The position numbers were made by a program, and so were the translations under genes. This document shows, piece after piece, positions 1,285 to 54,437 of a DNA stretch of 64,000 bases (the stretch's first letter is position 1; every line of letters begins with the position of its first letter). A model generated the notes under the pieces. It was given only the letters and a program-made list of their open reading frames with translations. It ran no database searches and was not told where the DNA came from. Origin of the DNA: Raillietiella orientalis (taxonomy: Eukaryota); assembly GCA_036172245.1 (NCBI GenBank), contig JAYWIR010000029.1, forward strand, positions 1 to 64,000, written 5' to 3'.

Positions 1285-1502
1285 TCTCTTCCCGTTCCCT
1301 CCCACCCTTTGTTTTTTTTTGTTTAGTTTTTTTCTTTTTCCCCTTTCCCCTGCTGTCTTGGTGGACCGTACCGGTCTAGAAACCGGTGAATTGGCAGGCG
1401 CCGTGGTTCTTAGCTTCTGGCTGGAGCATTGCCACAGCCATTAATAATTTGTTTACAAAGTTTATGTTTTTAATAAACGACTCGGAGAAATCCGGGTGAA
1501 AA
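1..1502 (+). mobile_element. 3' part of an A-type L1/Tx1-like non-LTR retrotransposon (continues off the left edge)
   Basis: ORF2 C-terminus with zinc finger CVRCGERESLSHLLVDC, pyrimidine-rich 3'UTR, AATAAA at 1472 and hairpin ACTCGGA-GAAA-TCCGGGT. Homologous to the minus-strand A element ending at 18039. Confidence 0.92.
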
Positions 1503-2336
1503 TCGAAAGCTTTACGCAAATCGACTGCGACCGCAAGGGCTCCAGGCACCGCATCTTCTTCCCGGCTTCCCTCCCCCCTGTCAATGGAGAGTCTAGGACT
1601 TTCCCGACGTAGCTGCGCCTCGCGTTGTTGCAACTGCCAGAATGTGCTGGCGAGGAACGGGTTGGCCTCCATGGTTCGTCCGGGAACAGCGTATGTCTGT
1701 TCCGGACTGACCACGGACTCCGCAACCCGTCCCAGGCGCTCAGCCCATAGCTTGGGGAGCAACTTTGTGTCCGCATTCACTACAGTGATGGGATGCCAGT
1801 TGTCAACGTTGCGCAAGTCTCCTCACTTAGGAAGGAGACGTACTCTAGCTGACCGGAACGATTTGGGGACATCCCCACGTTCACGGATCAGCATACATAG
1901 TTTAAGCACCAGAGGAGCCAGCTCTGCCGCGAAGTGTTGGTAGAATTCAGCTGGCAAGCCGTCTTCCCCTGGTGCTTTGTACTTTTTCATTTTAGTGATA
2001 GCGGAGATTATCTCCGCCATCGAGAATTCTTGGAGGAATATGTTTATTTCTTCCTCCCTCATCGCTGGAGCACCCTCTGGCAGCAGGCGCTGCGCAGAGG
2101 AGCGCTCCGGTGGTCTCACCGCGTGAAGGGAGGGATAAAAATCCCGCAGAATGCGGCAAACCTGCGCTGGAGATACGTGCTCCTGGCCTTCTTCGTCGAG
2201 CAAGCAGGCAGACCCGGATTTCCAGGCCTGCCTCTCCGCTCCAGCCTTCATCTCCGCCAGGCGACGGACGTCGGGGTTGTTGGAGAAACGACGGGCCTGG
2301 AGATAGTTCCTGTCGTTCCTCACGCCTTCGCCGAAA
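1503..2336 (-). pseudogene. Middle of element E ORF2 (FGEG linker to RT motif DLRKAFD)
   Basis: ORFs 1823-2323 and 1376-1816 give KAPGEDG, NWHPITVVN, YAVPGR and DLRKAFD, with one stop at 1823. Joins in frame to 54438-55320 across the CGCCGAAA duplication. Confidence 0.88.
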
Positions 2337-2348
2337 GCCGGTGTGGGT

Positions 2349-2355
2349 GGACGTG
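2349..2355 (+). promoter_or_regulatory. Conserved 5' GGACGTG motif, putative internal promoter element (also at 7188, 8581, 10891, 37301, 39738 on +; 31448, 33760, 35155, 51408, 59129 on -)
   Basis: Present 5-13 nt inside all 11 element 5' ends and followed by a T-rich run. The function is inferred. Confidence 0.6.
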
Positions 2356-2444
2356 TTTTTTGGTCGCTCCGCCAGCGCCTGTCTGGGAAGCAACCGGAGT
2401 TTTTTTAGTGTAGTCAGGTGTTAAGTGTGGGTCGTCGGTGTCCG

Positions 2445-4195
2445 ATGGCAGCCGTGCCAGAGGACACCGCGATGGATGTGGTTGTGGGGGAGGCAAGTCC
2501 TACCACAGGACCTACATCTATGGGGGCAATAGTCCCTGGAACGTCTTCGCAGCCGGCGAAGACTTGGAGTGAAATGGTCGCCGCCCCATTGCGGAGGCCA
2601 TGGCCGAGGAAGCCGCCTATCGGGCCTCTGAATACAAGCCATCGCTTGTATACAAGGTAGGCCCTTTGTTTGAAGGAAACACGGCGCGCTCTTTCAGCAG
2701 AGCGCTACAAAATGCTAATGTCCGTGAGGAAGATCTGGACGGTCTGTGCGTGCTCAGCGGGGCGCAGCGGGTTGAGCTGATGTGCAAGAGCATCAGCCTA
2801 GCCGATCGCCTTATAAATACCACGCTGATCATGGACGGCCGTAAGATCTTCCCGGTGTCAATGGACCACTCGGTAGTGGTCCACTTGACAGGAATATCCA
2901 AGCGCATGTCGCGCACTGCCGTAAAAGCAGAATTAAGTAAGTACGGGGACGTACACGTGCTGTGGCCGAAGCCCACAATCTTTGAGGGCTACGGACGCCA
3001 CTTCGGGGGCTTGGCTGCGGCACACGTAACCCCAAAAAACGAAGCGAAGCTACCCCACAAACTTGAGGTCGCGGGAGAACCAGTAGACCTCTGGTATGCT
3101 GGCAAGCCACGGTATTGCGGCTACTGCGATGCGGTCGGACACATCCGTAAGAGGTGCCCGAACATCGTATGCTACTTGTGCGGGGAGAAGGGACACGTCC
3201 GTCGCGTGTGCCCTAAACGCCCCACCCCAATTTCCTCGGCCGCCAAAAAGGCGCAAGCGAAACGCGCGGGGAAAGAAAAATTAGAAAACCGTGAAACTGG
3301 CCGAGAAAAGCTGCCAATAACCCAAGCTCCAAGCGCGGCATCGGAGAAAAATCTTCCCGAAACCGCAGAGGGTGAACAGGGCTGGCAGCTAGTCAAAGCC
3401 AAAAAAGAAAAAAAGGACAAGCATGTCCCGAAGAAAGGAGAGAAGGCGGCGGCCGGAACAAAAGCTCAATCCGTGTCGCGCGTAAAAACTCTCCGAGAAT
3501 GCACGGTTACGCTGGAGCGCATTGACGTTCCCGCCGACACCACCGGAGGCGATACGGCTTCGATCGATTTTCCCGCCGCGACGAATGCGCGCGAAAACCC
3601 ACCCCCCGTTTGCGAAGAGGGTCAGCCGGACGACAAAATCGCCGAAACCAAGGACGCAGCCTTCGAGAAGGCCGCCGAGGAGCTTGCGGCAACGCTTGCC
3701 GAACGCGAGAACCCTTCGCGAAAGGGGTTGCGTAGGCCGGCAGCGGCTAAAGTGGCCCCCGCAGGTGAGTCGGACCGGGAGGCCGGAAGTGCATCCTCCT
3801 CTGCGGAAGCACCACCAAGGAAAGCGGGGCGAAAATCCCAGAAACCCCGAAGGTGCATTGCGCCTCCGCGCGAGGGGGATGCAATGGTGGAGGAACCAGT
3901 GGATGGCAGCGTGGGAGCCCAAGTCGGGCATCACCCACGTGCGGAAGCCGACGAGGAGGCGACTCCAATGGAGGAGGGTAACCAGGGGTCAGCAATGCCC
4001 TCTGAAACCGCCGAACCTGAACCACCCGCACCAATGGATGTGGGCCAACAGGTACGAACAACACCCCCTTCGCACGGGCAGCCGGAGACGTCGGCACGAA
4101 AGAAGGATGGGGAGTTGGTGGGCAAGACGCCAACCCCGTCCAGCGACCCGCCCCAAAAGGTGGCGGGAGCTCCACCGCCAGGTTCCCAGGAATAA
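2445..4195 (+). pseudogene. B0 ORF1, zinc-knuckle nucleic-acid-binding protein, one frameshift near 2585
   Basis: MAAVPEDTAM start in ORF 2418-2660, continuing in ORF 2600-4195 with knuckles CGYCDAVGHIRKRC and CYLCGEKGHVRRVC. Confidence 0.88.
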
Positions 4196-5077
4196 CACCT
4201 GGACTCGCCTGTCGCCGTCGGATCCGCGCGGCCAGTTGGAATGTTAACGGGCTGCGCGACGACGGAAACAGACGAGATACAGCCGCCACCTTGCGAGATT
4301 TCGACCTGGTACTTTTGCAGGAGATCCACGTGATCACCGCAAAAGACGCCCAGGAGATCGAAACGATTGCGGGAGGGCGGTTGTACTGGCGATGCGGCGC
4401 CCGCAACACTTGTGGGGTCGCGTTCTTCCTAAAGCCAGCCATTAACGCGGCCGTGAAGGGCGTGCGCTTTGGGGACGACGGACGGATCGGCCAACTGATT
4501 CTCAGATGGTCCGATTCGATCGACCTCATCGTCACCAATGTGTACGCTCCTAGCGGTAAACAGGGATACCAGCAGCGCAACGCGTTACTGGAAACCTTGA
4601 AGCGCGAATGGCTGGTGGACGCGGACGTGCGAAAGGCGCATCTGATAGCAGGGGATTTCAACGTCCGTCTGCTCTCAGATCAGCCCGGAGCACAGGGTAA
4701 CGCGATCAACGAGTTGTGCGCCGCCATGCGCGCGCGCAACTTGTTGACAGAAATAAGCGGGATGGTCAGCAGCGTGGACCACGTCTTCCTCGACGAAGAC
4801 CTGTGCACACGGGTCGGAAAACGAGGGACACTTGGATCGACGCTGTCGGACCATTCCCGGTTAGTTTTCGAGATGCGCCCGCGCGACAAGGGACCGCCAT
4901 CCAGGGATTGGCGTATGCCAGGGGACTAGACGCGCCTGTCAGGAGCGAAAGAACATCTTCGCGAATTCCTGCGAGGCGTCAGCCTCCAGAGTCTCGCGGA
5001 TTCCGACCTATTTAAGGACTTGGTAAGGGAGTTCTGCGAACAGTTCCCTATGCAACGTCTGCCCCGGGGATTCGGCG
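4195..5077 (+). pseudogene. B0 ORF2 N-terminus, APE endonuclease (no ATG; stop at 4927)
   Basis: Reads TPGLACRRRIRAASWNVNG, LLQE, TNVYAP, AGDFN, VDHVFLD, LSDH, LPRGFG. Confidence 0.88.
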
Positions 5078-7176
5078 TTATCACCCGGGTACGCCCGGGC
5101 CGTTTATTAATGAACTTTACATGCGTGGTACAAAGCCCCACCACGGCCGTAAACACAGAACCTGTCGGGACACCGGGACGCAGCCCGGCGTGGCACTCCC
5201 CGACAGCGAAGGGGGATGGGGATAAGACAAAAAGTAAAATAAAAAGAAACAAACAAAAAGAAGTTGGAGGGCAGGGAAGGGATCACTAGTCGCTGTGGGG
5301 AGGGCCCATCCGTCGAACGAAGCCCTCGAGGTCAGTCTGCATATTCCCCAGTTGGGGCCATCCGGCAGCTCTTCGCAAGAAGCGTTTGGCATACGGGATG
5401 ACATCCCTCGCCTGTGGACCCACTCCTTCGTTGTTGGCGTTGCTCCATGCCCCCACAATGCCACGGACGCAGCACAAGGCTGCGATGGCTGCGGCTGGCT
5501 GCAGTGCGTCCTTCACGAAGAGGGGCCGAAGAACGTCTCTGGGGGTGCTGCCCGTAGGGAGCCCGAGGGTCGTCCCGAACCGTTCCCAAAGGGGTCGTAG
5601 GGCAGCAGAATCCACAATAAGGTGGGGAAGCGACTCCCGCTCCCCGCACCTGGCGGACGCAGGATCCACAGCTCCCCTCGTCCAGTGGAAGAGGCGCGCG
5701 TTGCAGGGTAGACCCCAGTGCAACAAAAGAAACGCCGACTCTTGCCACTTGAGAGGCAGGATCCTCGATTCTTTCATCATCGGGGGCCACTTCAGCTCAT
5801 CCCAGGGGATGGCGAGCAGCTCGCCCCATCTTAATAATCCTCGCGGCTGGACGCTCAAGGTCGTGGCGTCGGCCAGTTCTCCTGTTGTCCAGCCGCTGAT
5901 CAACTTCTTGCGTCCCTCGATGCAGCAGGAGACTTGCCACCTTGGCGTCCGGGTGCTGTGAAGTGCCCGTCTTAGGAAGGGCAGCGCCGTTGCTAGGCAG
6001 GTCGTCTCTGCCCACGTGCATCTTGCTGGACTCTCCAGGAGATTCCGCAGTGTGCAGCGGGCGTAGGGGCTGCATCGGAGAAGATTCCACGTCTCCTGGC
6101 TTCTCTGGTTAACTACTGCCCACGTTCCAATATTCTCCTCCAGCCAGGCGGGAAAGTTGGCGGGGCAGCAAACCATCCAGCTGTTCTCCTTGGCCAATGT
6201 TACCATCCGCCCGAGCAGTAGGCCGCATCTTCGCATCTTCCGGCCACGGCTCAGAAGAAAAGACGCGAGTCCATCGCACCGGGACACACGGCTGGCCAGG
6301 AGGCGGGCCGGAGTGCACCAAGGGGTACTCCACATCTTCGCTGCGATGGCGAGGGTTCGCCACCGCAGCTGCCATGGGCTCCAGCGTCTGGAGAATAAGA
6401 CCGTCGTCCCGACGCGGATCGCGCAAGTCCTTCAGAGGGACTCGGGGCCTCCCCTTGCCCCAAAGGGCGTTGCAGAGGAGTTCCTTTCTCCTCTTTTTAA
6501 TTACTCCTGGGGCGGGGCAAACAAAAAGCAAGAAGCGGAGGATGAGGGCCGCAAAATCGTTCCAAACCGCGGCCCGTTCCGGCAAGTGAAACTTGCCTTC
6601 CAGGAACGGGCCGATCGCCGTGTCGACTTTTTGAAGACAGCTGGACCACGCTTCCGCAGGGGAGTAGTCACCCAACAACACACCAAGGTACTTGAGGCAC
6701 CTCGCCGTGGGGATCCCCAAACGGAACCAGTCCTGCTGCCCTGCCCACGCTGCACCTACTGGCACCAACGACGACTTCGCCCTGTTGACCTGCAGTCCGG
6801 TACCATGGATGAGCAGATCGAAGAAGTCTCCGGCCGCCTTCGCCGGGGTGGACATTGGCAACAAAAGCAGAAGATCGTTGGCGTTCCCTGCTACCGCGGG
6901 AGTGCCGGGGCACGAGATCGGCAATGGGGCCAAAGTCACCCTGTACGCTCTCAGCACCAACTCAAAGTAGGTGCTGAAGAGCAGGGGGCTGAGGCTATCT
7001 CCCTGCCTTATGCCCCGCCGCATTGGCACGCCATACACCTTTTGTCCGCTGAAAGAGACGATAATTATCGCATTCTGCCAGCAAGAGCGCAGGTAGGAAA
7101 TCAGGGAGGGTTGAAAGCCCATGCGACCCAGAAGCTCCAAGAGGAGTTCCTGGTCTACACAGTCGAACGCCTTGTG
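5078..7176 (-). mobile_element. 3' half of a B element (HKAFD to 3' end), frameshifted ORF2
   Basis: ORFs 6109-7140 and 5286-6335 (RRGIRQGDSLSP, YLG, zinc finger) plus the 3' AATAAA-hairpin at 5078-5108. Near-identical to 35173-37276. Confidence 0.92.
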
Positions 7177-10884: not shown

Positions 10885-10962
10885 GAGTGCGGACGTGTTT
10901 TTCTTCGCTCTCGTCTCCGTGCTTTCATCCGCTTCATCTTGGCGTCGTACATTTTGACGACG

Positions 10963-16473: not shown

Positions 16474-16786
16474 TCATTGCCCTACCCTCCATAAACTAAA
16501 TTTGTATTTTCTTTTTACACCCGCGTCCCCATAGGCTCCGGAACATTTAAGGTGCTCATCGTATAAATCCCCGTGAGTACGGAGCCTAACCAAAAACCCG
16601 TTACCCTTCCCTCCAGTTTTTGATTTTTGTTTGTTTCCCGTCATTCCTCCCGCGCTGCGAGCGGTTTGTTTACCAGGCCTGCGTGCCTGTAATTTTTCTA
16701 TGTTCTCTGTCGTTCTGTTGGTTAAGGACATTGTCCCTGACCAGTTTATCATTATTAATAAACGCCCCGGCGTGACCGGGTGATAA

Positions 16787-18038
16787 ATTTCAATCTCCGC
16801 CTGCTAACAGGTGAGCCGGAAACACAAGTGAACGCGATGAACGAGTTGTGCGTTGCCATGCGTGCGCGCAACTTGTTCGCGGGTGAGAGGGGAATGGTCC
16901 GCAGCATCGACCACGTCTTCCTCGACGCTGACCTGTGTTCACGGGTCGGCAAACGGGGGAGGGTTGCGTCAACGTTGTCGGACCATTCCCGGTTAATTTT
17001 CGAGATGCGGCCTCGCGACAAAGGACCGCCATCCAGAGACTGGCGTCTGCCGGGGGACTGGACGCGACTCTCAGGTGCGAAGGAACACCTTCGCGACTAC
17101 CTGAGAGGCGTCACGCTCCGGAATCTCCAAGACTGGGACCTTTTTAAGGAATCGGTCCGGGAATTCTGCGAGCAGTTCCCCCTGGACCGCCTGCCCTCCG
17201 GATTCGGCGAGGGTCCTCGCAACCATCGGGCGTATTTACAGGCCCGTAGGTACGAGCGAACCCCTAATGTCCGTCGCCTGGCCGAGTACCGCGCCGGGGC
17301 CGAACGCCAAGCCTGGCAATCCGGGTCGGACAGCTTGCTGGACGACCAGGGCCGGGAATGTTCTTCCCCGGCGTCGGTACGGCATCTCTTGCGGAGTTTT
17401 TATTCCTCCCTTTACGCCAGGGAGCCCCCGGATCGAAACGCCTCTCGGCGCTTGCTTCCGGATGGCGCCCCGGCAATAGGGGAGGAGGAGATGGAAAGCC
17501 TCGACGAGCCTTTTGCCACCGGCGAAATTCTCGCCGGTATCAAAAGGCTCAAGAGGCGTAAAGCTCCAGGGGAAGACGGCTTGCCCGCGGAGTTCTTTCA
17601 GAGCTTCGCGGAAGAGCTGGCACCCCTGCTGCTCAAGTTGATCAGGCTGATCCGAGACGAAGGCGATGTTCCCGCCTCGTTTCGGTCAGCCAGAGTGAGG
17701 CTCCTTCCGAAAGGGGGAGACCTCAGGGATTTAAAGAACTGGCGTCCGATCACGATCGTGAATGCGGACGCCAAGTTGATCGCAGGGCTATGGGCTTCGC
17801 GTCTAAGGCAGGTGGCAGAATCCGTAATTAGCCCGGAGCAGACTTATGCTGTTCCCGGGCGAAGTGTGGATGCCAACCTCTTCTTCGCAAGCACATGGGT
17901 GCACCTGCAGAGAAGAGAGAAGAAAGGGATAGGGAAAGTCGGCAACCCCACATTGGGGCCGCCAGCCGGGCTGGGAAACGACCCCCGGGCGGGGAAGGGG
18001 GCCCTAGCGCTCGCAGTCGATCTCCACAAGGCGTTCGA
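16787..18038 (+). pseudogene. B ORF2 continuation (FN... to DLHKAFD), open frame truncated by the A insertion
   Basis: ORF 16780-18078 minus its junction-derived ends: IDHVFLD, LSDH, GFGEG, KAPGEDG, NWRPI, DLHKAFD. Confidence 0.9.
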
Positions 18039-22431: not shown

Positions 22432-25400
22432 TCACTGAACGCTGTGAGGAGGGCCCATCCGTTGAAGGAAGCCCTCGAGGTCCGTCCGTATATTCCCCAG
22501 TTGGGGCCATCCGGCAGCTCTCCGCATGAAGCGTTGGGCGTATGGGATGACATCCCTCGCAATTGGATCCACTCCATCGTTATTGGCGTCGCTCCATGCC
22601 GCCACGATGCCACGGACACAGCACAACGCTGCGATGGATGCGGCTGGCTGCAGTGCGTCCTTCACGAAGAGGGGCCGAAGAACGTCTCTGGGGGTGCTGC
22701 CCGTAGGGAGCTCAAGGGTCGCCCCGAACCGTTCCCAGAGGGATCGGTTGGTAGCACAGTCCACAATAAGGTGGGAGAGCGATTCCCTCTCTCCGCACCA
22801 GACACACTCAGGATCCACAGTTCCCCTTGTCCAGTGGAAGCGGCGTGCGTTGCAGGGTAATCCCCAGTGCAGCAGTAGCAACGCCGACTCTTGCCACTTA
22901 AGGGGCAGGATCCTGGATTCCTTTAGTACCAAGGGCCACTTCAGCACATCCGTAGGGATGGCGAGCAGCTCGCCCCATCTCATTAATCCACGCGGCTGGA
23001 CGCTCGGGGTCGTGGCGTCCGCCAGTTTTCCTGTGGTCCAGCCGCTTAACATCTTCTCTCTGCCTGCGATCTGGCAGGTGACTTGCCACCTCGGCTTCTG
23101 GCGGTCCTGGAGCGCCCTCAGGAGGTAGGGCATCGCCGTAGCAAGGGAAGTCATCAACGCCCACCTGCGACTCCGAGCAAATTCAAGTATTTCCCGCAGG
23201 GTGCGGTTGGCGTATGGGCCGATTCGCAGGCAGTTCAGGTGGTTTTCACTCCTCCGGTTCAGCTTAGCCCATGTGCCAGCAGACTCCTCTAACCAGGCGG
23301 AGGAGTTGGCGGGGCCACAAACCATCCAACCGTTCGTCTTCGCCTAGGTTGCTATGCGTCCGAGCATAAGGCCGCATCTTCGGATCTTCCGGCCAGGATA
23401 CAGAAGAAACGACGCGAGTCCTTCGCGTCGGTACACACGCCTGGCGAGGTGGCGGGCCGGAACGCACCAAGGGGTGCTCCACATCTTCGCTGCGATGGCG
23501 AGGGTTCGCCACCGCAGCTGGATTTCCACGCGCACCAGCGTCAGGAGGCGAAGGCCGCCGTCCAGACGCGGAGCGCACAAGTCCATCAGAGGGACTCGGG
23601 GCCTCCCCTTGCCCCAAAGGGCGATGCGAAGGAGTTCCTTTCTCCTCTTTTTGCATTCTCTGGGGGCGGGGCAAACAAAAAGCAAGGGGCGGAGGATGGG
23701 GGCCGCGAAGGCGTTCCAAACCGCGGCCCGTTCCGGCAAGTGAAACTTGCCTTCCAGGAACTGGCCGATAGCCGTCTCAACTTTTTGAAGACAGCTGGAC
23801 CACGCTTCCGCAGGGGAGTAGTCACCCAACGGCACACCGAGGAACTTGAGGCACCTCGCCGTGGGGATACCCAGACGGAACCAGTCCTGCTGCCCTGCCC
23901 ACGCCGCACTTATTGGCACCACCGACGACATCGCCCTGTTGACCTGCAGTCCGGTCCCATGGCTGAGCAGATCGAAGAAGTCTCCGACCGTTTTCGCCGG
24001 GGTGGACATAGGTAACAGGAGCAGAAGGTCGTTGGCATAGGCTGCTACGGCAGGCGTGCCGGGACACGAGCAAGGCAAGGAGGCCAAAGTCACCCTGTAG
24101 GCTCTCAGCACCAACTCAATGTAGGTGCTGAAGAGCAAGGGAATCAGGCTATCTCCCTGCCTGATGCCCCGCCGCACCGGCACGTCATGCACTTTCTGAC
24201 CGCTGAAAGAGACGGAAATTATGGCATGGCGCCAGCAGGAGCGCAGGTAGTTGAACAAGGAGGGTGGGAAGCCCATGCGACCCAGGAGCTCCAACAAAAG
24301 CCCCTGGTCAACACAGTCGAACGCCTTATGGAGATCGACTGCGAGCGCTAAGGCCCCCTTCGCCGCCCGGGAGTCCATTCCCTACCCTGCTGGCGGCCCC
24401 AAAGTGGGGTTGCCGATTTTTCCTTTCCCTTCCTTTTGACACCTCTGCGCGTGCATATACGTGCTCGCGAAGAAGAGGTTGGCATCCATACTTCGCCCGG
24501 GAACAGCATATGTCTGCTCCGGGCTAATAATGGATTCTGCCACCTGCCCCAGACGCGAAGCCCATAGCCCGGCAACCAACTTGGCGTCCCTATTCACAAT
24601 CGTGATCGGACGCCAGTTGTTCAAATTCCTAAGGTCTCCCCCTTTCGGAAGGAGCCTCACTCTGGCTGACCGAAACGAGGCGGGAACATCGCCTTCGTCT
24701 CGGATCAGCCTTGTCAGCTGAAGCAGCAGGGGTGCCAGCTCTTCCGCGAAGATCTGATAGAACACCGCGGGCAAGCTGTCTTCCCCTGGAGCTTTCCGCC
24801 TCTTCAGCCTTTTGATACCGGCGAGAATTTCGCCGGTGGTAAAAGGCTCATCGAGGTTTAACGACTCCTCCTCCCCTATTGCCGGGGCACCATCCGGAAG
24901 CAAGAGCCGAGAGGCATCTTGATCCGGAAGCGCCCTGGCGTAAAGGGAGGAATAATAACTCCGCACGAGATGCCGTACCGACGCCGGGGACGAACATTCC
25001 CGGCCCTGGTCGTCCAGCAAGCTGGCCGACCCGGATTGCCAGGCTTGGCGTTCGGCCCCGGCGCAGTACTCGGCCAGGCGACGGACATTAGGAATTCGCT
25101 CGTACCTACGGGCCTGTAAATAGGCCCGATGGTTGCGAGGACCCTCGCCGAATCCGGAGGGCAGGCGGTCCAGGGGCAACTGCTCGCAGAATTACCGGAG
25201 CGATTCCTTAAAAAGGTCCCAGTCTTGGAGATTCCGGAGCGTGACGCCTCTCAGGTATTCGCGAAGGTGTTCCTTCGCACCTGAGATTCGCGTCCAGTCC
25301 CCCGGCAGACGCCGTTCTCTGGATGGCGGTCCTTTGTCGCGAGGCCGCATCTCGAAAATTAACCGGGAATGGTCCGACAACGTTGACGCAACCCTCCCCC

Positions 25401-33680: not shown

Positions 33681-33779
33681 TGGACACCGACGATGTACAC
33701 AAAACACCACACTGAACAAAAAGCGCTTTCCTACTACTCTTTAGGGAGTGAAGGAAAAACACGTCCTCCAGCTGGCCGC

Positions 33780-35172: not shown

Positions 35173-37276
35173 CACAAGGCGTTCGACTGTGTGGACCAGG
35201 AACTCCTCTTGGAGCTCCTGGGTCGCATGGGCTTTTAACCCTCCCTGATTTCCTACCTGCGCTCTTGCTGGCAGAATGCGATAATTATCGTCTCTTTCAG
35301 CGGTCAAAAGGTGTATGGCGTGCCGGTGCGGCGGGGCATAAGGCAGGGAGATAGCCTCAGCCCCCTGCTCTTCAGCACCTACTTTGAGTTGGTGCTGAGA
35401 GCGTACAGGGTGACTTTGGCCCCATTGCCGAGCTCGTGCCCCGGCACGCCCGCCGTAGCAGCGAGCGCCGACGATCTTCTGCTTTTGTTGCTAATGTCCA
35501 CCCCGGCGAAGGCGGCCGGAGACTTCTTCGATCTGCTCAGCCGCGGAACCGGACTGCAGGTTAACAGGGCGAAGTCGTCGGTTGTGCCAATAGGTGCGGC
35601 GTGGGCAGGGCAGCAGGACTGGGTCCGTCTGGGGATCCCCACGGCGAGGTGCTTCAAGTACCCTTGTGTGCCTTTGGGGGACTACACCCCTGCGGAAGCG
35701 TGGTCCAGCTGCCTCCAAAAAGTCGAGACGGCGATCGTCCCGTTCCTGGAAGGCAAGTTTCACTTGCCGGAACGGGCCGTGGTTCGGAACGCCTTCGCGG
35801 CCCCCATCCTCCGCCCTTTGCTTTTTGTTTGCCCTCCCACCGTGGAATCCAAGAAGAGGACGAAGGACCTCCTCCGTATCGCCCTTTGGGGCAAGGGGAG
35901 GCCCCGAGTCCCACTGAAGGACTTGTGCGCTCCGCGTCGGGTCGGCGGTCTTGGCCTCCTGACGCTGGAGCGCGTGGAGAAGCAGCTGCGGTGGCGAATT
36001 CTCGCCATCGCAGCGAAGATGTGGTGCACCCCTTGGTGCACTCCAGCCCGCCTCCTGGCCAGCCGTGTGTCCCGGTGCGATGGACTCGCGTCTTTTCTTC
36101 TCAGCCGTGGCCGGAAGATGCGAAGATGCGGCCTACTGCTCGGGCGCATGGCAACATTGGCCAAGGAGAACAGCTGGATGGTTTGCTGCCCCGCCAACTC
36201 CCCCGCCTGGCTGGAGGAAAATATTGGAACGTGGGCAGTGGTTAACCAGAGAAGCCACGAGACTTGGAATCGTCTCCGATGCAGCCCCTACGCCCGCTGC
36301 ACGCTGCGGAATCTCCTGGAGAGTCCAGCAAGATGCACGTGGGCAGAGACGACCTGTCTAGCTACGCCGCTGCCCTTCCTGAAGAGGGCACTTCAAAGCA
36401 GCCGGACGCCAAGGTGACAAGTCTCCTGCTGCATCGAGGGACGCGAAAAGTTGATCAGCGGCTGGACAACAGGAGAACTGGCAGACGCCATGACCCCGAG
36501 CGTCCAGCCGCGAGGACTAAGAAGATGGGGAGAGCTGCTGGCCATCCCTATGGATGTGCTGATGTGGCCCCCGCTTCTTCAGGAATCCAGGATCCTGCCT
36601 CTTAAGTGGAAAGAGTCGGCGTTGCTGTTGTTGCATTGGGGTTTACCCTGCAACGCACGCCGCTCTCACTGGACAAGAGGAGTTGTGGATCCTGCGTGTG
36701 TCAGGTGCGGAGAGCGGGAATCGCTCTCCCACCTTATTGTGGACTGTGCTGCCCTTCGTCCCCTTTGGGAACGGTTTGGGACGATCCTCGGTCTCCCAAC
36801 GGGCAGTTGCCCTAGAGACGTTCTTCGGCCCCTCTTCGTGAAGGACGCCCTGCAGCCAGCCGCAGCCCTTGCAGCCTTGTGCTGCGTCCGAGGCATCGTG
36901 GCGGCATGGAGCGACACCAACAAGGAAGGAGTGGGTCAACACGCGAGGGATGTCATCCCATATGCCCAACGCTTCTTGCGAAGAGCTGCCGGATGGCCCC
37001 AACTGGGGAATATGCAGACTGACCTCGAGGGCTTCGTTCGACGGATGGGCCCTCTCCACAGCGAACAGTGATCCCTTCCCTGCCCTCCAACTTCTTTTTG
37101 TTTGTTTCTTTTTATTTTACTTTTTGTCTTATCCCCATCCCCCTTCGCTGTCGGGGAGTGCCACGCCGGGCTGCGTCCCGGTGTCCCGACAGGTCCTGTG
37201 TTTACGGCCGTGGTGGGGCCTTGTACCACGCATGTAAAGTTTATTAATAAACGCCCCGGGCGTACCCGGGTGATAA
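35173..37276 (+). mobile_element. 3' half of B element (HKAFD to 3' end); resumes the ORF2 broken at 18038
   Basis: ORFs 35311-36417 and 36451-37071; 3' AATAAACGCCCCGGGCGTACCCGGGTGATAA. Confidence 0.92.
37246..37276 (+). terminator. 3' terminal module AATAAA + GC hairpin (11 copies across all families)
   Basis: AATAAA-CG-CC-CCGGG-CGTA-CCCGGG-TGATAA here; variants at 1472, 5078, 16757, 18039, 22221, 25569, 45514, 45884, 54407 and 57962. Confidence 0.7.
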
Positions 37277-37288
37277 CGCCGAATCCCC
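37277..37288. repeat. 12-bp isolated target sequence CGCCGAATCCCC between two head-to-tail B elements
   Basis: Exact reverse complement of 5066-5077 (GGGGATTCGGCG, the RGFG codons). Confidence 0.85.
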
Positions 37289-37388
37289 GCTGTGGAGAGC
37301 GGACGTGCTTTTCCTGCGCTCCGCCTGCGTGGCAAAGCGAGTGTTTTTTCTTCTTGAGTGATTTGTGCGTGCACATCGTCGGTGTCCG

Positions 37389-39263
37389 ATGGCAGCGTTG
37401 CCAGAGGACACCGCGATGGAAGTAGGCGTGATGGAGGCTTGTTCGTCCCCACAGCCTACTGGATCAGCGGCATCCGCCCCGGAATCGTCCCCGGCGACGC
37501 CGAGGTCATGGAGCGCCATGGTGGCCGCGCCTAGCGTGGAAGCCATGGCCGAGATGGAAGCCTACAAGAAAGCGGGGTATAAACCCTCGCTAGTCTACAA
37601 GGTAGGCAACCTTTTCGATGGGCGAACTGCACGCGCCTTTACGAATTTCGCTGCAGGACGCCAATATCTTTGAAAAAGATCTCGACGGCCTCTGCGTCCT
37701 CAGCGGCGGGCAGCGGGTCGAGGTGGTATGCAAGGATATCACCTTGGCCCGACACCTGATCACCGACCCGCTGATCGTTCATGGTCGGAAGATCTTGCCG
37801 ATAACGATGGACCGCTCGGTGGTGGTCCATCTCACTGGGATCTCCAGTCGCATGACAAGGTCAGCGGTTCGAGAACAGCTACAGAAGCACGGAGAAGTGC
37901 ACGCGTTGTGGCCGAAGTCCACGATTTTCCAAGGCTACAATAGCCTTTTCGGAGGTCAAGCTGCGGCGCGTATCACAGTAAAAGAGGGTGGTGCGCTTCC
38001 CCACAAGCTGGAGGTCTGCCAAGAAGCGCTGGACCTCTGGTACGTTGGGAAACGCCAATTTTGTGGCTACTGCAATGCAGTAGGGCATCTACGAAAAAGG
38101 TGCCCGAACATTGTGTGTCACCTATGCGGCGAAAAGGGTCACGTTCGGCGGGTGTGCCCCAAGCACCCCACCCCGGTGCCCCCTGCCGCCAAAAAGGGGC
38201 AGGGAAAACGTGGAAAGCTGGTAGAAAGACCAGCTCGCGAAAATGGCCGTTCCCAACTGCCAGCCTCCCTTCCTCCCGTACAGACGTCGGAGGAAATAGC
38301 TCCCGTGGACGCGGGAATAAAGGAGGTTTGGCAGCTGGTTCAGGCCAGAAAAGAGAAAAAGAAGAAAGTGATGCCAGAAGAAAAGCCGGAGAAGAAAACC
38401 GCCGGCAACAAGAAAAAAGCCGCGCCGCTTTCAAAAAAAAAATCCGCAAATGCTCGGTGGGACTGGAACGCTTAGCCGTTCCTGCCGAGTCCGCCCGCGG
38501 CAATGTTCGCGGAACAGCTGATGCGGACGCGATGAATACTCGCGTGGACGAGCCCAATCTACGTGTAGAGGGTGAGACGCGAGTCTCGCGCGGCGACAGC
38601 CAGGACGCCGCGCTCGATTAAGTCGCGGAGGAGCCCGCGGCAACGTTCGCCGTCAACGATGACGCCGCGCTCGATAAGGTCGCGGAGCAGCGCGCGGCAA
38701 CGGTCGCCGCTGGCGAAGACGCGACCTTCGAGAAAGCGGCGGAGGAGCTCGCAGCAACGCTCGCCGAGCGCGAAACCCCGTCGCGCAAGGGCGTACGCAG
38801 GTCGGCTCCGACGAAGAAGGCCCCCGCAGGTGAGTGCGACCTGGGGGCCGGAAGCGGATCCTCCTCCTCGGAGGCACCCCCCAGGACGTCGGGACGCAAG
38901 TCCCAGAAACCCAGGAGGCGCCTCCCCTCCACCAGCGAGGAGGAGAAACCGGAAGGAAGCGGCAGCGTGGGAATCCCGGAGGGGGAAATCCTACGCTCGG
39001 AAGCCGTCGAGCCGGCCACCCCCATGGAGGAGGGTGAGCAGGGGGGCAAAGTCCTGCCTGCAGTCGCCGAGCCTGAACAGCCCGCCCCCATGGAGGAGGG
39101 CCAACAGGTAGGCGCGACCCCACCTAAGGGTGACCCGCTCGACGCGCCGTTACCCATGGAGGAGGAGGAAAAGGTGCCTTCAGTACCTGTCCCTCCTCCC
39201 CCTCCACCTAACGTTCCGCCGCAACAGGTGGCGGACGCCGCATCGCCATCTTCCCAGGAATAA
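37389..39263 (+). pseudogene. B2 ORF1, frameshifted
   Basis: MAALPEDTAMEV start; ORFs 37365-37673, 37618-38475 (two knuckles) and 38967-39263. Confidence 0.86.
38604..38774 (+). repeat. 3 x 57-bp in-frame tandem repeat in B2 ORF1
   Basis: Units start GACGC at 38604, 38661 and 38718, each a variant of DAAFEKAAEELAATLAERE. Confidence 0.8.
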
Positions 39264-39731
39264 CACCTGGGCTCGCCAGTCGCCGTCGGATTCGCGCCGC
39301 CTGTTGGAATGTCAACGGGCTGCGCGACGACGGTAACAGGCGAGATACGGCCGACACCCTGCGTGAGCTCGACCTGGCCCTGCTGCATGAGATCCACCTG
39401 ATCACCGCGGCAGACGCCCAGGAGATCGAGATGATCGCGGGGGGTCGGCTGTATTTGCGGTGCGGCCTCCGCAACACCTGCGGGGTCGCGTTCTTCGTCA
39501 AGCCGGCCATCGACGCGGCCGTGAAGGGCGCGCGCTTCGATGACGACGGTCGGGTCGGTAAGCTGATTCTCAGCTGGTCCGACCCGATCGAATTGATCGT
39601 CACGAATGTGTACGCCCCCAGCGGTAAACAGGGATACAGCGACCGTACCAGGCTGCTGGATTCCCTGAAGCGCGACTGGCTGGCGAACACGAGCGTGCGG
39701 AAGGCTCACCTGATAGCGGGAGATTTCAATC

Positions 39732-42700
39732 GAGTGCGGACGTGTTTTTCTTCGCTCTCGTCTCCGTGCTTTCATCCGCTTCATCTTGGCGTCGTACATT
39801 TTGACGACGATGTCGACCCAACTTGAAGCTACTGAAGTTGGAGGAACAGCATATGGATCTGCAATCGCGGAACCGACGGCCGCCTCCACTTCGTCATTCT
39901 CGCCAATGGAGAGGAGTTTTGCTGACGTTGCTGCCACAGCAGCCGTCAAAGGGAAGCCACTCGACGAGTCGGAGTTGCGGGCATACGTAGCCGAAGGCTA
40001 TAGACCTGCTCTCCGATATAAGGTGAGTGGGTTTCTTTCTGCGCGCGACGGGAATCAGTACCTTCTCGCCATTATGCCCGTAAAAGACATAGGCTATTTC
40101 AAGGTGCGTTGCAAAGACGCTGCACTTGTGCAACGCTTGCTGCGCACCCCGTTGTCGATTCGTGGCCAGAAGGTCTTCCCGGCCGCCATGGACGACTCAT
40201 TTGTGGCGGAGATTTTCGAGATGGAGTCGGAAATCCCCTTTATTGATATTCGGAACGCGTTGGCAAAATTAGCCACGGTCCATGCGCCGTGGAGGGTGCG
40301 GAGCAACCTCAAGGACTTCCCGTCCATACACAGCGGAGTCGCTGTAGTCCGGCTGACGACCAGTTGGTAGAACAATTACCTGGTTCGTGGGCAAAGTAGA
40401 AACGTGCGAGCAATGCGGGAAGGAGGGGCATTGTTTGAATAAATGCCCCTCTGGAAAATGCCGTTATTGCAAACTATCCAGGCACCCATTGAAAAATTGC
40501 CCGGATCTTTTGCGAAAAAAGGCAGCCGCGGAGCTTCATCTTAAGAAACAAGGCGCGGAGAAAAAGAAAAAATCTGCGAAAAACATGGAGACCCCACGGC
40601 AGAAATTCGGTAAAAACGCGAGGCGGAATGTCGCCCCAAAGCAGCATGAAACCTCGCACGCGAAGCCCTGCGTGCCCACTCTCGAGGCAGGGGAGCCGAA
40701 AAAGAAAGAGTGCGGGTAATCCGGGGCAATGGTAAGTCCCCCTAGGCGCAATAGCTGTCCTTCGCGAGCACGCCCGGCTCTTTCGGAGTTCGAGCAACCG
40801 GCGGGGACGTCAATGGACAACGGCGGTAAGGACACTTCCAGTACCGTTAGATCCAATCCTTCACCTCCTGCAGTGACTGAGAAGCCCAAATCGGGTAAGA
40901 AGGGTTGTGCAGTGTCGACTTCGAAAGTCGGCAAAAAACAATCCGCGTCGCGATCCGACACCGCGAAAGCGGAGAAAAATCTCACGCCGTCGCAATCGGA
41001 GAGCAAGCTCTCGACTGGCGCGGATGCCATGCCAACGAAGGGATTAAAAGCCCTTCCGAAGGCAGCGTCCATGACGAGCGTGTCGAAGCCATCCAAAGTG
41101 CTCCCGTTGAAAGACGGCTTCAAAGATGGCCAGGCAATGGAGCACAATATCCATTTACGGCGCCACGCGAAGTGAGGAACCGTAATGGTAAAGAAGACTT
41201 CAGCAAGGGTCCCTCCGCGCAACTGCGCGTGAGCAGCTGAAAACGCGCGCGCCCGGAAAGCAGCCGTCACCAAAAGCGATGCTCTGGAGACGGAAAAGAC
41301 AACAGGACAGCTGTCAATCCGGCAGAACCTGTCACTACTTCGCGGAAGGCCGAAACTCGATCCGAACATGCGCCGGTCGGACTCCGAAATGCGTACCGAT
41401 CACCGAGACGAGGACAACTCGTTCAAGCGTGTGCGCACCGATTAATAGTAGGCAGCCAGGCAACGCTCGCCGCGAAGCAGCTTGAGTTCCTCCCAATATC
41501 CAAGAAGGACACACAAGGGGTGGGCACCTCAACTGCATGCAGCACGACGGAGGACGGTGGCGACCTCTTCTCCAGCCGGTCGTGCTGCTCGCCGTCCGCT
41601 CGCCGGATAAAGCGAGCAAAAAGCCGATGCCTTCCCAGCAGTAATGCGGGGAATCGCGTCTTGTCGTCGTCTGTCCGTCGCGTGCTGGAACATGAATGGA
41701 CTGCAGAACGACGGGGAGAGACGATTAGTAGCCAACGCCCTGCTTCTCTTCCACCTCGTGTTTCTGCAGGAGATTCACGTAATCTCCCACGAGCAGGCTG
41801 CGGAAGTATAAGATCACGTAGGCGGAACGCTACATTGGCGGTGCGGCGACGCCCATACGTGCAACGTCGCGTTCCTCGTAAGAGGAAAAATTACAGAAGC
41901 GGTGCGTGGTGTTCGTCTCGACGACAAAGAAAGGGTAGGCCAACTTGTCATCAGGTGGTCCGAGTCCATCGATATTGTCGTTACCAATAACTACGCACCC
42001 AATGGCTCTCGCTACCTTGAAAGAAAAGTACCTTTCTTTGGTGAGGTGCAGAGCCACTGGCTAAAAAAACTCCGGCCACCAAATAGCACACCTCGTTGTA
42101 GAGGACTTCAACGTCCGCGTGCTCTCCGACGATTGGAGCCGCCGCAGAGAGCGCGCGCTGCCCATCGAGATGTGCGCGTCGGTGCACGCCGCAAACTTGA
42201 TGGTCAGCGAACCTGGAATGGAAAGTTCGCTCGATCACGTTTTCCTCGATGAAAACCTGCATTCGCGTGTGGGCAGGAGAAAAAGGTTGTTGACTGGGCT
42301 TTTTGGCCACGACTGGTTGTCGTAAGTGCTCCTTCAGTTAAATAAGGGGCCTATGTTGCAAAACTGGAGGATGCAGACGGATTGGCTTAGCCACCCGGAG
42401 GCTGCGGAGCATCTCCGTGAACACCTACGAGGCTTCGCCATTCAAGAACTTGCAAACTAGGACGATCTCAAAAGATCTGTTCGCGAGTTCTGCTGCCGAT
42501 TCCCCTTGCATTGCCTTCCACGCGGTTTCGGAGAAGACGTGGCCAACAGCAGACACTTTCTGCATGCTCGCACGTTTTCCAGACGCGCGGATGTTGGATG
42601 TCTTGCGGAGTACAAGGCGAGGGTTGAGCGTGAGGTTTGGCAGTCCGGAGCAGCATGCCTGTTGGACGAAAAGGGCCATAAATGCTCGACCCCAGCCGAA

Positions 42701-45543
42701 GTACGCCGGATTCTAAGACGCTACTACTTTTCGCTGTACGCGGAATCCCCGACGCAGGACATTCTCTCTGAGATACTCTTGTCGCAGGATGCTCCTGTCG
42801 TCGGCGAGAAGGAACGCGACCGTCTCAACGAGCCCTTTACGGCGGATGAATTCTCGTCCGCCATTGCTAAGCTGAAGAGACAAAAGGCGCTATGCAAGGA
42901 TGAACTGTTTGCAGAGTTTTACCAGTGCTTTGCAGTGGAGCTCACCTTCTTGATGCTGAGACTTACGACGCTGATGAGGGAATCCGGGATCGTCATGGAT
43001 TCCTTCCGTTCAGCGAAGGTCCGTCTCCTGCCAAGAGGCAAAGACTGGCGTCAACTTAACTAGCGTGCGATCACCTTGGTGAACTCGTACGTCAAGTTGG
43101 CTTGTGGAGTCGCGCGGTTGAGGAGAGTATCGCGGAATCTGTGAGTGAGCCGGAACAAACCTACGCGGTTCCGGGACGATCCATGGAGGCGAACGTCCTT
43201 TTCGCGCGTACATGGATGCAGCTGCAGGAAGTTGTGGCGCAGCAAACCAGGCTGCTGAGAAAGTCACTGCCGCAGGCAAGAAGAACAGGCGCCGATGGCA
43301 GGAGGGAACGCCAGGTGCCTTGGCGGTCGCGGTCGATCTTCACAAGGCGTTCGACTGCATAAACCAGAAGCTGCTCTTGGAGCTTATGGAACGCCTTGGG
43401 TTCCCGGCGCAACTCCTGCTGTATTTGCGCGCGTGCTGGCGCCACGCGCTAACCTGCATCACTTTTAGCGGCTGCCGCGTGTATGGTATTCCCGTTCGTA
43501 GGGGCATCCGACGGGATGACAGCTTAAGCCCGTTGCTCTTCAGCATCTTCTTCGAGTTGGTGCTAAGAGCATACAGGCTGACGCTGTCTCACTTGCCAAG
43601 CTCCTGCCCGGGAACGCCTGCCGTGGCCGCCTACGCTGATGACCTGCTTCTTCTGCTCCCCATGTCCACCCCGGCGTCCAGTGTCGAGGATTTCTTCGAC
43701 CTGATTCGTCGGGGAGCGGGCGTGAGCGTGAACAGAGAGAAGAGCGTGGTCGTTGCTGTGGGTACGTCGTGGGAGGGGCAGTCCGACTGGATCCGCCTGG
43801 GGATCCCCACGGGCGGGTACTTTAAGTACTTTGGCGTTCCGTTGGGCGCTTTCGGCGCAGCCAAAGCGTGGGCGGACTGTCTTCAGAAAGCAGAGTTGGC
43901 CATCAGCCCGTTTTTTAACGGCAAGTTTACATTGCAGGAACGCGCGACTATTTGGAACACCTTTGTGGCCCCCCTCCTCCGTCCCCTGTTTTTTGTTTTG
44001 GACCCCCCTTTTGCGGCGAAACAGCGGGCTAAGCGCCTGCTCAGGAACGCTCTCTTGGGTCCGGCGAGATCCAGGATCCGCCTTAAAGATTTGTCAGCTC
44101 CCCGTAGGGATGCTGGTTTGGGTTTCCTGACAATGAAGCGAATCGGACTGCAGGTGCAGTTCCGACTGCTGGCACTGTGTGCCAAGCTATCGTCATCCCC
44201 CCTGTGTGTGCCAGCTCGCATTCTCCTGCGGAGATGCGCCGGCAGCGGATGATTTCTCTCGCTTTTGCCGGGCACTCAATACAGAAAGCGGGGTTTTGGG
44301 TTTCCATTGCGGCAGTTGACTGCACTTCTGGAAGCACACTCGTGGATCTCCTGCAGCCCAATGAACTTTGAAGCTTGGCGGCAGGAGTCTGTTGAATCCT
44401 GGGCGGCGTTCCAAGGAATACGCCCTGAAGATCTTCGCCCCCTGCGCCAATTTTTTCCACGATCCTTGGAAGAAGTACTGCAGGACGAGGTGAAGTTTTC
44501 TACCCTGGCTGCCACGCCTCTTGCCGCAGCGCTGTCTGCCCTCAGGGCAAGAAATCACAGTTACCAACCGGCGAGGTGGGAGGTTTCCTGCACGATAGCG
44601 GGAAAAACCAAACTTCTTGGCACCTGGAAGACAAGTGAGTTGGCGGACGCCGCCACTCCTCGTGTTACTGCAAAGGGACTCCTCCGGTGGGCAGAAGAAC
44701 TTGCTGTCACCCCCGAAGAACTTGTAGTCCCTCCACAGTGTATGGACAGTTCGCTGCTCCCCCTTGCTTGGAAACAAGCCGTGCTGCTTTTCGTTCACTG
44801 GGGTTTTCAGTGCAACGAGCGTTGGCATCGTGACTCCGGGGGACTTGCGTCTTCGAACTGCGTTCGGTGCGGATCGACGGAGTCGATTCCGCACCTACTT
44901 CTGGACTGCGGTGTCCTACAAGGACTGTGGCGTAGGCTGGCAACAGCACTATTGCATCCCGTGGACACCGCAAGAGACTTGCTGCGACGATTCTTCACGC
45001 CGAGCGGGCTTTCACTAAGCGCAAGGATTGCAACCACCGGTTGCATACGCGCGATAGTTTCCGTCCGCCAGGCGTTGGTAATCATCGGACAGCACCAAGA
45101 GGTAATCAGCAAAGCATCCTTCTACATGGGAGCATCATCTAGATGGCCTCATTTGACAGAGGAGACAAAGAGGAATCTCGCCGCAATACACCGCCGGTTT
45201 ACACACGCTCAGCAGCGGCCAACCCGGTGATCATTGCCCTACCCTCCATAAACTATTTTTGTATTTTCTTTTTACACCCGCGTCCCCATAGGCTCCGGAA
45301 CATTTTAGGTGCTCATCGTTTAAATCCCCGTGAGTACGGAGCCTAACCAAAAACCCTTTACCCTTCCCTCCAGTTTTTGATTTTTGTTTGTTTCCCCTCA
45401 TTCCTCCCACGCTGCGAGCGGTTTGTTTACCAGGCCTGCGTGCCGGTAATTTTTCTATGTTCTCTGTCGTTCTGTTGGTTAAGGACATTGTCCCTGACCA
45501 GTTTATTATTATTAATAAACGCCCCGGCGTGACCGGGTGATAA
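39732..45543 (+). mobile_element. Full-length but decayed C element, copy 3 (ORF1 39810-41644, ORF2 41644-45230), 9-bp TSD
   Basis: ATTTCAATC at 39723-39731 and 45544-45552; TAATG at 41642; ORF fragments match copies 1 and 2. Confidence 0.93.
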
Positions 45544-46099
45544 ATTTCAATCTCCGCCTGCTAACAGGTGAGCCGGAAACACAAGTGAACGCGATGAACG
45601 AGTTGTGCGCCGCCATGCGTGCGCGCAGCTTGTTCGCGGGTGAGAAAGGAATGGTCCGCAGCATCGACCACGTCTTCCTGGACGCTGACCTGTGTTCACG
45701 CGTCGGCAAACGGGGTAGGGTTGCGTCAACGTTGTCGGACCATTTTCGGTTAATTTTCGAAATGCAGCCTCGCGACAAAGGACCGCCATCCAGGGACTGG
45801 CGTCTGCCGGGGGACTGGACGCGACTCTCAGGTGCGAAGGAACACCTTCGCGAATACCTGAGAGGCGTCACGCTCCGGAATCTTTATTGAAACCCGGGTG
45901 CGCCGGGACGTTTATTCTAACGAATAAACTTATACAATCTGTGACTGGACCAGTAGTCCAGCCACGCCCTGGAAAGATATAGCCTGCCGGGCTACCGGTG
46001 CGCAGACCGGCGCGGTCGACCTCGGCAGCAGAGGGGAGGGGGAACGAAACAAACAGAAAACAAAAAATAAACAAAAATCAGGGAGGGAGCGGGAAGGGA

Positions 46100-49000: not shown

Positions 49001-49679
49001 ACATGATCCGACCATGGTCCGACAGCTCGGATGGTACCTTGCCGCGCCCGCCCACCCGAGAGCATAGGTGCTGATCAAGGTACACGTGATCGATGCTGCT
49101 TTCCATGGCCGTGTCCCCGGCCAACAAGTTGCGCGTGTTCATTTCTGCGCACAACTCGTTGACGCGGTCGTTCAGTGTATCCGGCGCACCTGAAAGCAGG
49201 CGCCGGTTGAAATCACCTGCGATCAGGTGCGCTTTGCGAACTCCTGCATCGGTCAGCCAATCGCGTCTCAGGGCAAGGTAGAATTCCCTTCTTGCCTTCG
49301 CCTTCAACGCGTTATTTCCGCTAGGAGCGTATAGGTTGGTGACGACCAGGTCGATAGAGTCGGACCAGCTGAGAGTCAGCTGACCCACGCGACCTGCGTC
49401 ATCGAACCGAACGTCCTTTATTGCGGTGTCGATGGCTGGCCGAAGCAGGAAGGCGACACCGCTTGATTTCGCGGTGCCGCAACGCCACAACAGCCGCCCA
49501 CCCGAGATCCGTTCGATCTCCCGGGCTTGATCTGCGGAGATCACGTGGATCTCCTGCAGCAGCACCAGGTCGAAGGATGCCAGGGTGGCGGCCACGTCAC
49601 GCCTCTTGCCGTCGTCGCTTAGCCCGTTCACGTTCCAACAGGCGATCAGAAGACGACGCCGAGAGGCGATTCCCGGCAT
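46100..49679 (-). pseudogene. D ORF2 (APE-RT-zinc finger), two frameshifts in the C-terminal third
   Basis: ORF 47286-49679 (797 aa; WNVNG, GDFN, SDH, KAFD, YADD), then 46423-47730 and 46100-46555. Confidence 0.92.
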
Positions 49680-51337: not shown

Positions 51338-51419
51338 TTCTGCCTAATCCTCCACCCACACCACGCACAAGCACCAACGGAAATGGAACTCAGGAGCAAC
51401 GAAAAGACACGTCCGCTCG

Positions 51420-54230: not shown

Positions 54231-54437
54231 TCCCTTCCCTGCCCTCCAACTTCTTTTTGTTTGTTTCTTTTTTTATTTTACTTTTTGTCTCATCCCCATC
54301 CCCCTTCGCTGTCGGGGAGTGCCACGCCGGGCTGCGTCCCGGTGTCATGACAGGTCCTGTGTTTACGGCCGTGGTGGGGCCTTGTACCACGCATGTAAAG
54401 TTTATTAATAAACGCCCCGGGCGTACCCGGGTGATAA

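Follow-up and report, generated by a model that had tools for sequence, protein, structure and literature searches.

The DNA examined here, referred to as the window, is a stretch of 64,000 nucleotides from Raillietiella orientalis (assembly GCA_036172245.1, contig JAYWIR010000029.1, positions 1 to 64,000 of the forward strand). From position 1 to approximately 60,700, it consists of nearly nothing but retrotransposons of the long interspersed nuclear element (LINE) type that are mutually nested, as judged by self-comparison and domain scans; at least 10 junctions at which copies sit in earlier copies were mapped over 60 kb. The island holds at least four related LINE families, and the lineages are split by an identity of ~50–65% in the second open reading frame (ORF2). 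The lineage names E/B, F1, F2, and H0 were coined in this analysis; E/B corresponds to the B0/B2 elements of an earlier note on this DNA (the original prediction), which proposed that these elements insert antisense at the codons of an L-P-x-G-F-G linker. A Pfam scan of 10 ORFs identified an apurinic-like (APE-type) endonuclease in the long ORFs (PF03372, E 8.8e-16 and 1.4e-9) and a reverse transcriptase in five of the 10 (PF00078, E 1e-17 to 1e-22), with a sixth ORF under the Pfam cut-off. The zf-RVT domain is weak in the long ORFs (20–21 bits vs a cut-off of 27.5), and the upstream ORFs (ORF1) feature CCHC knuckles. An ORF2 that combines an apurinic-like endonuclease at its N-terminus with a reverse transcriptase is the layout of an APE-type LINE. 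Complete copies lack long terminal repeats and are bordered by target-site duplications (TSDs), namely ATTTCAAT (three times), CACAAGGCGTTCGA, and ACGCTCCGGAATCT.

All five B-type termini in the window adjoin the heptamer CGCCGAA: the 3′ ends at 5078(−), 37276, and 54437 and the 5′ ends at 2337 and 37289. Read in antisense, the heptamer corresponds to the G-F-G codons in the L-P-x-G-F-G stretch of the host ORF2. The B-type 3′ ends all finish with ...CCCGGGCGTACCCGGGTGATAA; the sequence next to them is CGCCGAATCCCC for the junctions at 5077(−) and 37277(+) and CGCCGAAACCTG for that at 54438(+). The 5′ ends bear GGACGTGYTTTT and are preceded by CGCCGAAA (before 2337) and CGCCGAATCCCC (before 37289). 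The sequences that the original prediction quoted for these ends are all present where it placed them. The reading frame of the host gives ...FPMQRLPRGFG at 5059–5076(+) and ...FPLNRLPTGFG at 54456–54439(−), and both frames (LPRGFG and LPTGFG) continue into the antisense 3′ untranslated region (UTR) of the insert as ...GFG-VITRVRPGRL. The host fragment 2336→1502(−) restarts with (G)FGEGVRN, as read by eye from the sequence. Every B insert lies antisense to its host. Counted along the ORF2 of 1064 residues at 29464→26270, the site comprises residues ~291–296 and sits between the endonuclease (Pfam 15–222) and the reverse transcriptase (463–734) domains. The remaining three GTGATAA matches (16786, 25569(−), and 45543) are 3′ ends of another family and are followed by ATTTCAAT, not by CGCCGAA.

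Since the host frames read through the heptamer and uninterrupted homologues carry it, CGCCGAA is host sequence and not the element terminus. The seven bases are identical after all three B 3′ ends and could, on this ground, be taken as B's own terminus—the copies would then end with GTGATAACGCCGAA—or as an artefact of the assembly. Such an origin is, however, most improbable. The heptamer lies in the reading frame of the host ORF2s, it is likewise present ahead of the 5′ ends, in the manner of a duplication, and a different sequence follows the 3′ end of the related copy E_inner. The repeated copies differ from each other by 3–16%, which is at odds with a collapsed or chimeric assembly.

The first B-type element is S3 (B0 in the original prediction), the 5′ part of which spans 2337..5077 (+) and starts with a 5′ end carrying GGACGTGTTTTT. 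It features ORF1 at 2600–4195, including a CCHC knuckle, and then residues 1–296 of an ORF2 that has one in-frame stop and finishes with LPRGFG. Upstream lies the host fragment S2 (1502..2336, −), which covers ORF2 from ~residue 294 to KAFD at ~570 as judged by tblastn and a print of the junction; its last 8 nt (2329–2336 in + coordinates) are the TSD copy CGCCGAAA. S3 is insert and host alike: its 5′ end lies in H0, and it is itself struck at 5077. The target copy CGCCGAATCCCC at 5066..5077 (−), the antisense of the (R)GFG codons of S3, stands right after the 3′ end of B_Y. This 3′ part of a B-type element (5078..7176, −) sits antisense in S3 and extends from KAFD to the end of ORF2 and on through a 3′ UTR with hairpin and GTGATAA; its KAFD site at 7176 adjoins the 5′ end of an F2-family element. 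A second 3′ part of a B-type element, S14, covers 35173..37276 (+), again from KAFD to the 3′ end. It is followed by a 12-nt target copy CGCCGAATCCCC at 37277..37288 (+) that is identical to 5077–5066 and separates S14 from the 5′ end of B#3. The latter is a full-length B-type element at 37289..54437 (+) with a length of ~5.8 kb without its nested elements. It ends at the host fragment S22 (54438..55321, −), which holds ORF2 residues 1–296 finishing with LPTGFG and the first bases of which are CGCCGAAACCTG in + coordinates. A fifth candidate junction at 60692 was discarded, as the host copy runs on there in degenerate form.

The hosts struck at 5077 and 54438 (4201–5077 vs 54438–55317) are just 66.8% identical over 877 aligned bases, whereas the inserts are 90.9% identical; hence, the two junctions are not copies of one event. 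They are two clearly independent antisense insertions exactly after TTCGGCG of L-P-x-G-F-G, and the proposal that the hosts belong to different families is borne out. The same holds for the claim that the B 5′ ends stem from different subfamilies (2432–3264 vs 37376–38210, 69.1% identical). The junctions at 5077 and 37277, in contrast, are related and not independent since both lie within a 13-kb inverted repeat that includes 12 (13) flank bases: 5065–18038 matches the reverse complement of 24317–37289 with 86–98% identity per 400-nt window. This inverted repeat may be a duplication or may have arisen by repeated site-specific nesting together with conversion. In total, the independent hits number at least two and probably three, with one or two in H0 and one in S3. 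The junctions listed in the original prediction are real, but they represent two to three independent events at the same nucleotide and not the four to five that the list implies. Both ends of the inverted repeat fall on element target sites, one on the LPxGFG target copy and the other on a KAFD site.

S14 is a mosaic. In a comparison of 35173–37288 with 5066–7176 and 52332–54449, it agrees with B_Y over its first ~350 nt and again over its last ~100 nt and the flank, but with B#3 over the 1.5 kb in between; the informative sites divide into 55 shared by B_Y and S14, 148 shared by S14 and B#3, and 24 shared by B_Y and B#3. Gene conversion has therefore been active, namely between copies 17–30 kb apart. 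The recurrence of the junctions might then reflect copying instead of target choice, i.e., one ancient insertion spread by segmental duplication and gene conversion. The conversion mosaic of S14 agrees with this, as does the position of 5077 and 37277, together with the 12 flank bases, within the inverted repeat. In addition, composite junctions recur as blocks, e.g., the B 3′ part next to the F2 5′ end at 7176, 35173, and 59147. A copied block ought to diverge evenly, though, which is not the case for hosts at 66.8% and inserts at 90.9%, and conversion is in general unlikely between hosts that are just 67% identical. Moreover, the junction at 2336 involves a 5′ end and yet another host fragment, the third, with an 8-nt repeat that agrees with the one at 54438. 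Spread by copying is for these reasons considered unlikely as the origin of the recurrent junctions.

The two H0 pieces, both on the (−) strand, cover residues 1–296 (54438–55321) and ~294–570 (1502–2336) and match up like parts of a single ORF2. Each of them is ~64–71% identical to every other lineage, and the direct repeat CGCCGAAA is present on both with eight of eight bases matching (2329–2336 and 54438–54445). On the simplest reading of the sequence, H0 would be one host ORF2 that was split at LPxGFG by the 52-kb block 2337–54437, with S2 taken as its downstream half and S22 as its upstream half. The block opens with a B 5′ end and closes with a B 3′ end. Within it, B#3 carries one F1 element (39731–45543, sense, TSD ATTTCAAT) and one F2 element (45884–51419, antisense, TSD ACGCTCCGGAATCT). 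The flanks of B#3 match at all seven positions of CGCCGAA and at nine of the first 10 bases. At 37276–37289, two B elements are arranged head to tail, with the 5′ end of B#3 12 nt past the 3′ end of S14; such a B–12 nt–B layout is expected when a duplicated target is struck again. Several insertion histories may fit the arrangement; in one of them, H0 would have received two insertions in tandem, one homologous deletion would have occurred, and the target copy in the middle would have been converted. Conversion may have rewritten this short middle copy, or an inverted duplication may have ended at the site.

The word CGCCGAA itself is not enriched in the window: it occurs 22 times vs 16.8 ± 4.6 expected, a count attained in 15 of 100 shuffled sequences. 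The adjacency, however, exceeds chance—five of five B termini touch one of these 22 copies among ~128,000 strand positions, and all do so at the same codon position. By simple arithmetic (22 sites/~128,000 strand positions), the chance for two independent events is ~1e-8.

The best reading of these junctions, and in our judgment a likely one, is site-specific antisense insertion of B by target-primed reverse transcription from a nick after TTCGGCG. B would be a ~5.8-kb LINE without poly(A) that prefers the G-F-G codons of L-P-x-G-F-G in the ORF2s of related LINEs. We infer that its APE-type endonuclease would nick the sense strand of the host at 5′-GG(A/T)TTCGGCG^AAGG. The freed 3′-OH would then prime synthesis of the complementary DNA at the defined end of the element RNA (...hairpin-UGAUAA); because priming would start from the 3′-OH of the sense strand, the element would come to lie antisense to its host. 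A nick of the other strand 8–12 nt away would duplicate CGCCGAA(A/T)(CC). Since this duplication would regenerate the site, a second element could land beside the first one and give the B–12 nt–B tandem. The junctions, the orientation, the duplications, and the independence of at least two events are directly visible in the sequence; the nick positions are deduced from them. The fixed 3′ end and the two stem-loops found in all families fit a start of reverse transcription at a defined RNA end.

Several observations weigh against site-specific insertion at this heptamer. The independent events number just two to three and all stem from one window. The homologous sites at 17191, 25164, and 51498 carry the exact TTCGGCG, followed by AGGG and not AAGG; all three are empty, and so are 15 further copies of CGCCGAA, two of which are the 10-mer CGCCGAAACC. 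The end of the primer (...GGCG) and the end of the RNA (...UAA) share no microhomology, and no nick-site consensus common to the families was found in the window. The sequence before B#3, CGCCGAATCCCC, differs from its 3′ flank CGCCGAAACCTG at three of 12 positions, the 5′ flank being of the S3 type and the 3′ flank of the H0 type; owing to this mismatch and the S3-type match, B#3 departs from the textbook case of an insertion bordered by a 12-nt TSD. Gene conversion in the cluster could, in addition, spread or blur junctions. Finally, the related copy E_inner, the 3′ part of which is 84% identical, sits at a different site in ORF1 of an F2 element; it is one related copy in the window that lies off the LPxGFG site, and a sequence-specific LINE is expected to have few or no copies outside its target genome-wide.

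The empty homologous sites belong to the E/B-family copies E_outer (CTGCCCTCCGGATTCGGCG followed by AGGG, 17191..17209, +) and E_inner (25146..25164, −) and to the LPPGFG site of B#3 (51498–51516). The 7-mer alone is insufficient for insertion. As a core shared by the junctions, CGCCGAA stands, since all five termini touch it; as the determinant of insertion, it is not demonstrated, as exact copies stand empty. The variant sites are likewise empty, namely TTCGGAG in three F1 copies and TTTGGGA and TTTGGGG in F2. The original prediction that hosts with variant codons are never struck is hence true in the window, but with two of five exact sites and none of five intact variant sites occupied, the difference is not significant (hypergeometric P ~0.2).

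Target choice could also be set by pairing and not by the endonuclease, an idea derived from a statement on R1Bm in an excerpt of PMC7265360: a read-through flank starting with CGCCGAA, or the element's own LPxGFG region, would anneal to nicked or open homologous DNA. GGATTCGGCG is indeed present in the B elements themselves, and near-identical E/B copies occupy two sites, LPxGFG and F2 ORF1. The copies are mosaic, and the argument that the same endonuclease goes with a different site is thereby weak. The read-through RNA is hypothetical, and E_outer, E_inner, and B#3 all have an exact homologous site that stands empty. Pairing as the selecting step is rated as rather improbable, and target choice may instead rest with the endonuclease of B.

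The other families use sites of their own. Three E/B copies are interrupted at their endonuclease GDFN codons (GGCGATTTCAAT) by full-length F1 elements of ~5.9 kb (10884–16786, 31462→25569, and 39731–45543), which lie in sense orientation and are each bordered by the TSD ATTTCAAT; the pairs are 10876–10883/16787–16794, 25561–25568/31463–31470, and 39723–39730/45544–45551. S3 presents an empty GDFN site at ~4655–4661. The three F1 copies may represent three separate hits, or the composite may have been retrotransposed or duplicated, as host and insert diverge together in places. F2-family elements (35172→18039 and 51419→45884, with 5′ parts at 7177–8580 and 59146→57992) bear the 3′ end GGGTGAAAA and sit antisense in the HKAFD codons of the reverse transcriptase. 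The element with junctions at 18038/18039 and 35172/35173 has a perfect 14-nt TSD, CACAAGGCGTTCGA (18025–18038/35173–35186). Further F2 insertions at HKAFD are found at 7176/7177, at 59146/59147, and in the H0 host at 1501/1502; the latter is an independent event, given that the host lineage is just ~69% identical. With KAFD used by a different family, characterized by its own 3′ end and the 14-nt TSD, the claim that the B specificity is distinct from KAFD is upheld.

One full-length F2 element (45884–51419) sits antisense in B#3 at ORF2 residue ~269 and is bordered by the perfect 14-nt TSD ACGCTCCGGAATCT at 45870–45883/51420–51433. Its 3′ end GGGTTTCAATAA is unlike the other F2 ends and includes TTTCAAT, which is most of the TSD of F1. 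An E-family element with its own F1 copy (22221–33789, −) lies in sense orientation within F2 ORF1. Its junction shows a short repeat of about CCTCC, and the same junction is found again at ~8580 in the other arm. Taken together, the clean insertions of the other families with perfect 8- or 14-nt TSDs indicate that precise targeting is general in this group, and, as F1, F2, and E sit elsewhere, that LPxGFG is a separate specificity of the B lineage.

On a wider and more tentative reading, for which the odds are somewhat less than even, a guild of sibling LINE families would home on each other's conserved codons and thereby build the island. The sites would be GDFN for F1 (sense), HKAFD for F2 (antisense), LPxGFG for B (antisense), and a site in F2 ORF1 for E. 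The targets might then be motifs that the host element cannot alter without loss of function—possibly the logic of homing endonucleases acting between retrotransposons. Transcripts that carry flanks might let a lineage change its target. If true, such homing would account at the sequence level for how LINE-only islands of the Zepp or centromere-like type assemble themselves. Targeting of sibling codons would explain gene-free islands, recurrent composite junctions, and tandem as well as Russian-doll layouts, and it would add short, defined targets of 7–14 nt for APE-type endonucleases, i.e., natural specificity variants to compare.

Among protein relatives, the closest is P0001, a metagenomic reverse transcriptase on a 2.9-kb contig with 56–65% identity. 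The nearest named proteins are plant LINE-like reverse transcriptases with zf-RVT (23–33% identity); the others are distant LINE reverse transcriptases. The protein atlas returned generic reverse transcriptase clusters only. A search with the ORF2 alignment yielded 23 loci, the best segment being 21–36% identical in 21 of them and 45% identical over 33 residues in two; none of the 23 was usable for junctions. The junction-spanning peptide, in which host ...LPTGFG runs into the antisense B 3′ UTR (P0129 residues 280–374), found no match in the search. One sequencing run (X1) contained 17% of the words sampled from 52001–62000.

Sequence-specific LINEs are known for ribosomal DNA (rDNA), telomeric repeats, small RNA genes, and microsatellites. 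Tx1L and other elements of the Tx1 group belong to the L1 group and are APE-type LINEs that are strictly sequence specific. The single site used by Tx1L lies within Tx1D, so that one transposable element targets another; what the Tx1 group enters is a DNA transposon or repeat and not ORF2 codons of LINE relatives. Sibling families that target one another are not known. In green algae, nested Zepp and ZeppL clusters are known candidates for centromere DNA. Zepp carries a poly(A) tail, whereas the elements described here have none.

In function, the closest analogues are the R1-type sequence-specific APE LINEs, and in structure, the nested Zepp/ZeppL clusters. R1 (R1Bm and Drosophila R1) likewise is an APE-type LINE that inserts with nucleotide precision, and with a TSD, into a conserved multicopy target. 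The R1Bm endonuclease specifically cuts both strands of its target, according to an excerpt of PMC1919474. Tandem R1 copies parted by duplicated target have been ascribed to double insertion in 10.1101/158386, and such tandems match the B–12 nt–B junction found here. The R1 target is 28S rDNA, in contrast to the coding stretch of a sibling LINE that B enters in antisense. Zepp and ZeppL of green algae also form mutually nested LINE copies in a GC-rich island (PMC3446292, 10.1101/2020.06.13.149070, and PMC9940879), with a guanine-plus-cytosine (GC) content of 61% for Zepp vs 53% for its genome (PMC3446292); this likeness is one of descriptions. Zepp/ZeppL arrays consist mostly of 3′ ends left after 5′ truncation, as put in an excerpt of 10.1101/2020.06.13.149070, whereas the insertions here are mostly full length and come from several families. 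A further difference is that each family here uses a defined site of 7–14 nt in conserved codons. The excerpts of the literature examined hold no nucleotide-level account of how Zepp/ZeppL clusters target "existing copies". The literature search returned no report of LINEs with codons of sibling LINEs as their target; the papers that first described Zepp lay outside this search, and a prior description is possible.

All lineages have their element ends in common. The 5′ motif GGACGTGYTTTT recurs throughout, and the 3′ ends feature two stem-loops, AGTTTAT...ATAAAC and then CCCGG...CCGGG, followed by a fixed terminus that lacks poly(A), e.g., GGGTGATAA or GGGTGAAAA. In place of a poly(A) or simple-repeat tail, each of the 11 3′ ends inspected has the two stem-loops and then a fixed terminus resembling ...GGGT(G)A(T/A)AA. 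These fixed ends resemble those of "stringent" LINEs that recognize the 3′ structure. A search with the 3′ hairpin pattern AATAAACGNCCCGGN{4,7}CCGGGTGAWAA gave no match in metagenomes, prokaryote genomes, and viral contigs. The stem-loops carry compensatory differences between families (e.g., 54378–54437, 16727–16786, and 18039–18098(−)), and AATAAA is found just upstream of the last hairpin.

Full-length copies with conserved 5′ ends are the three F1 elements, F2b, B#3, and E_inner. The single clear 5′-truncated copy in the window is F1-like, begins at ORF2 residue ~475, and spans 55656–57990 (+) without a clear TSD; its 3′ end GGGTAATAA adjoins ORF1 of an F2-like element. The remaining part of the window, 60700–64000, is probably the edge of the island. 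No Pfam family was detected in its six ORFs, and tblastn gave just weak reverse transcriptase-like traces with 22–29% identity at ~62.4–63.9 kb. The GC content is ~55–63% in the island vs ~51% in the last 4 kb.

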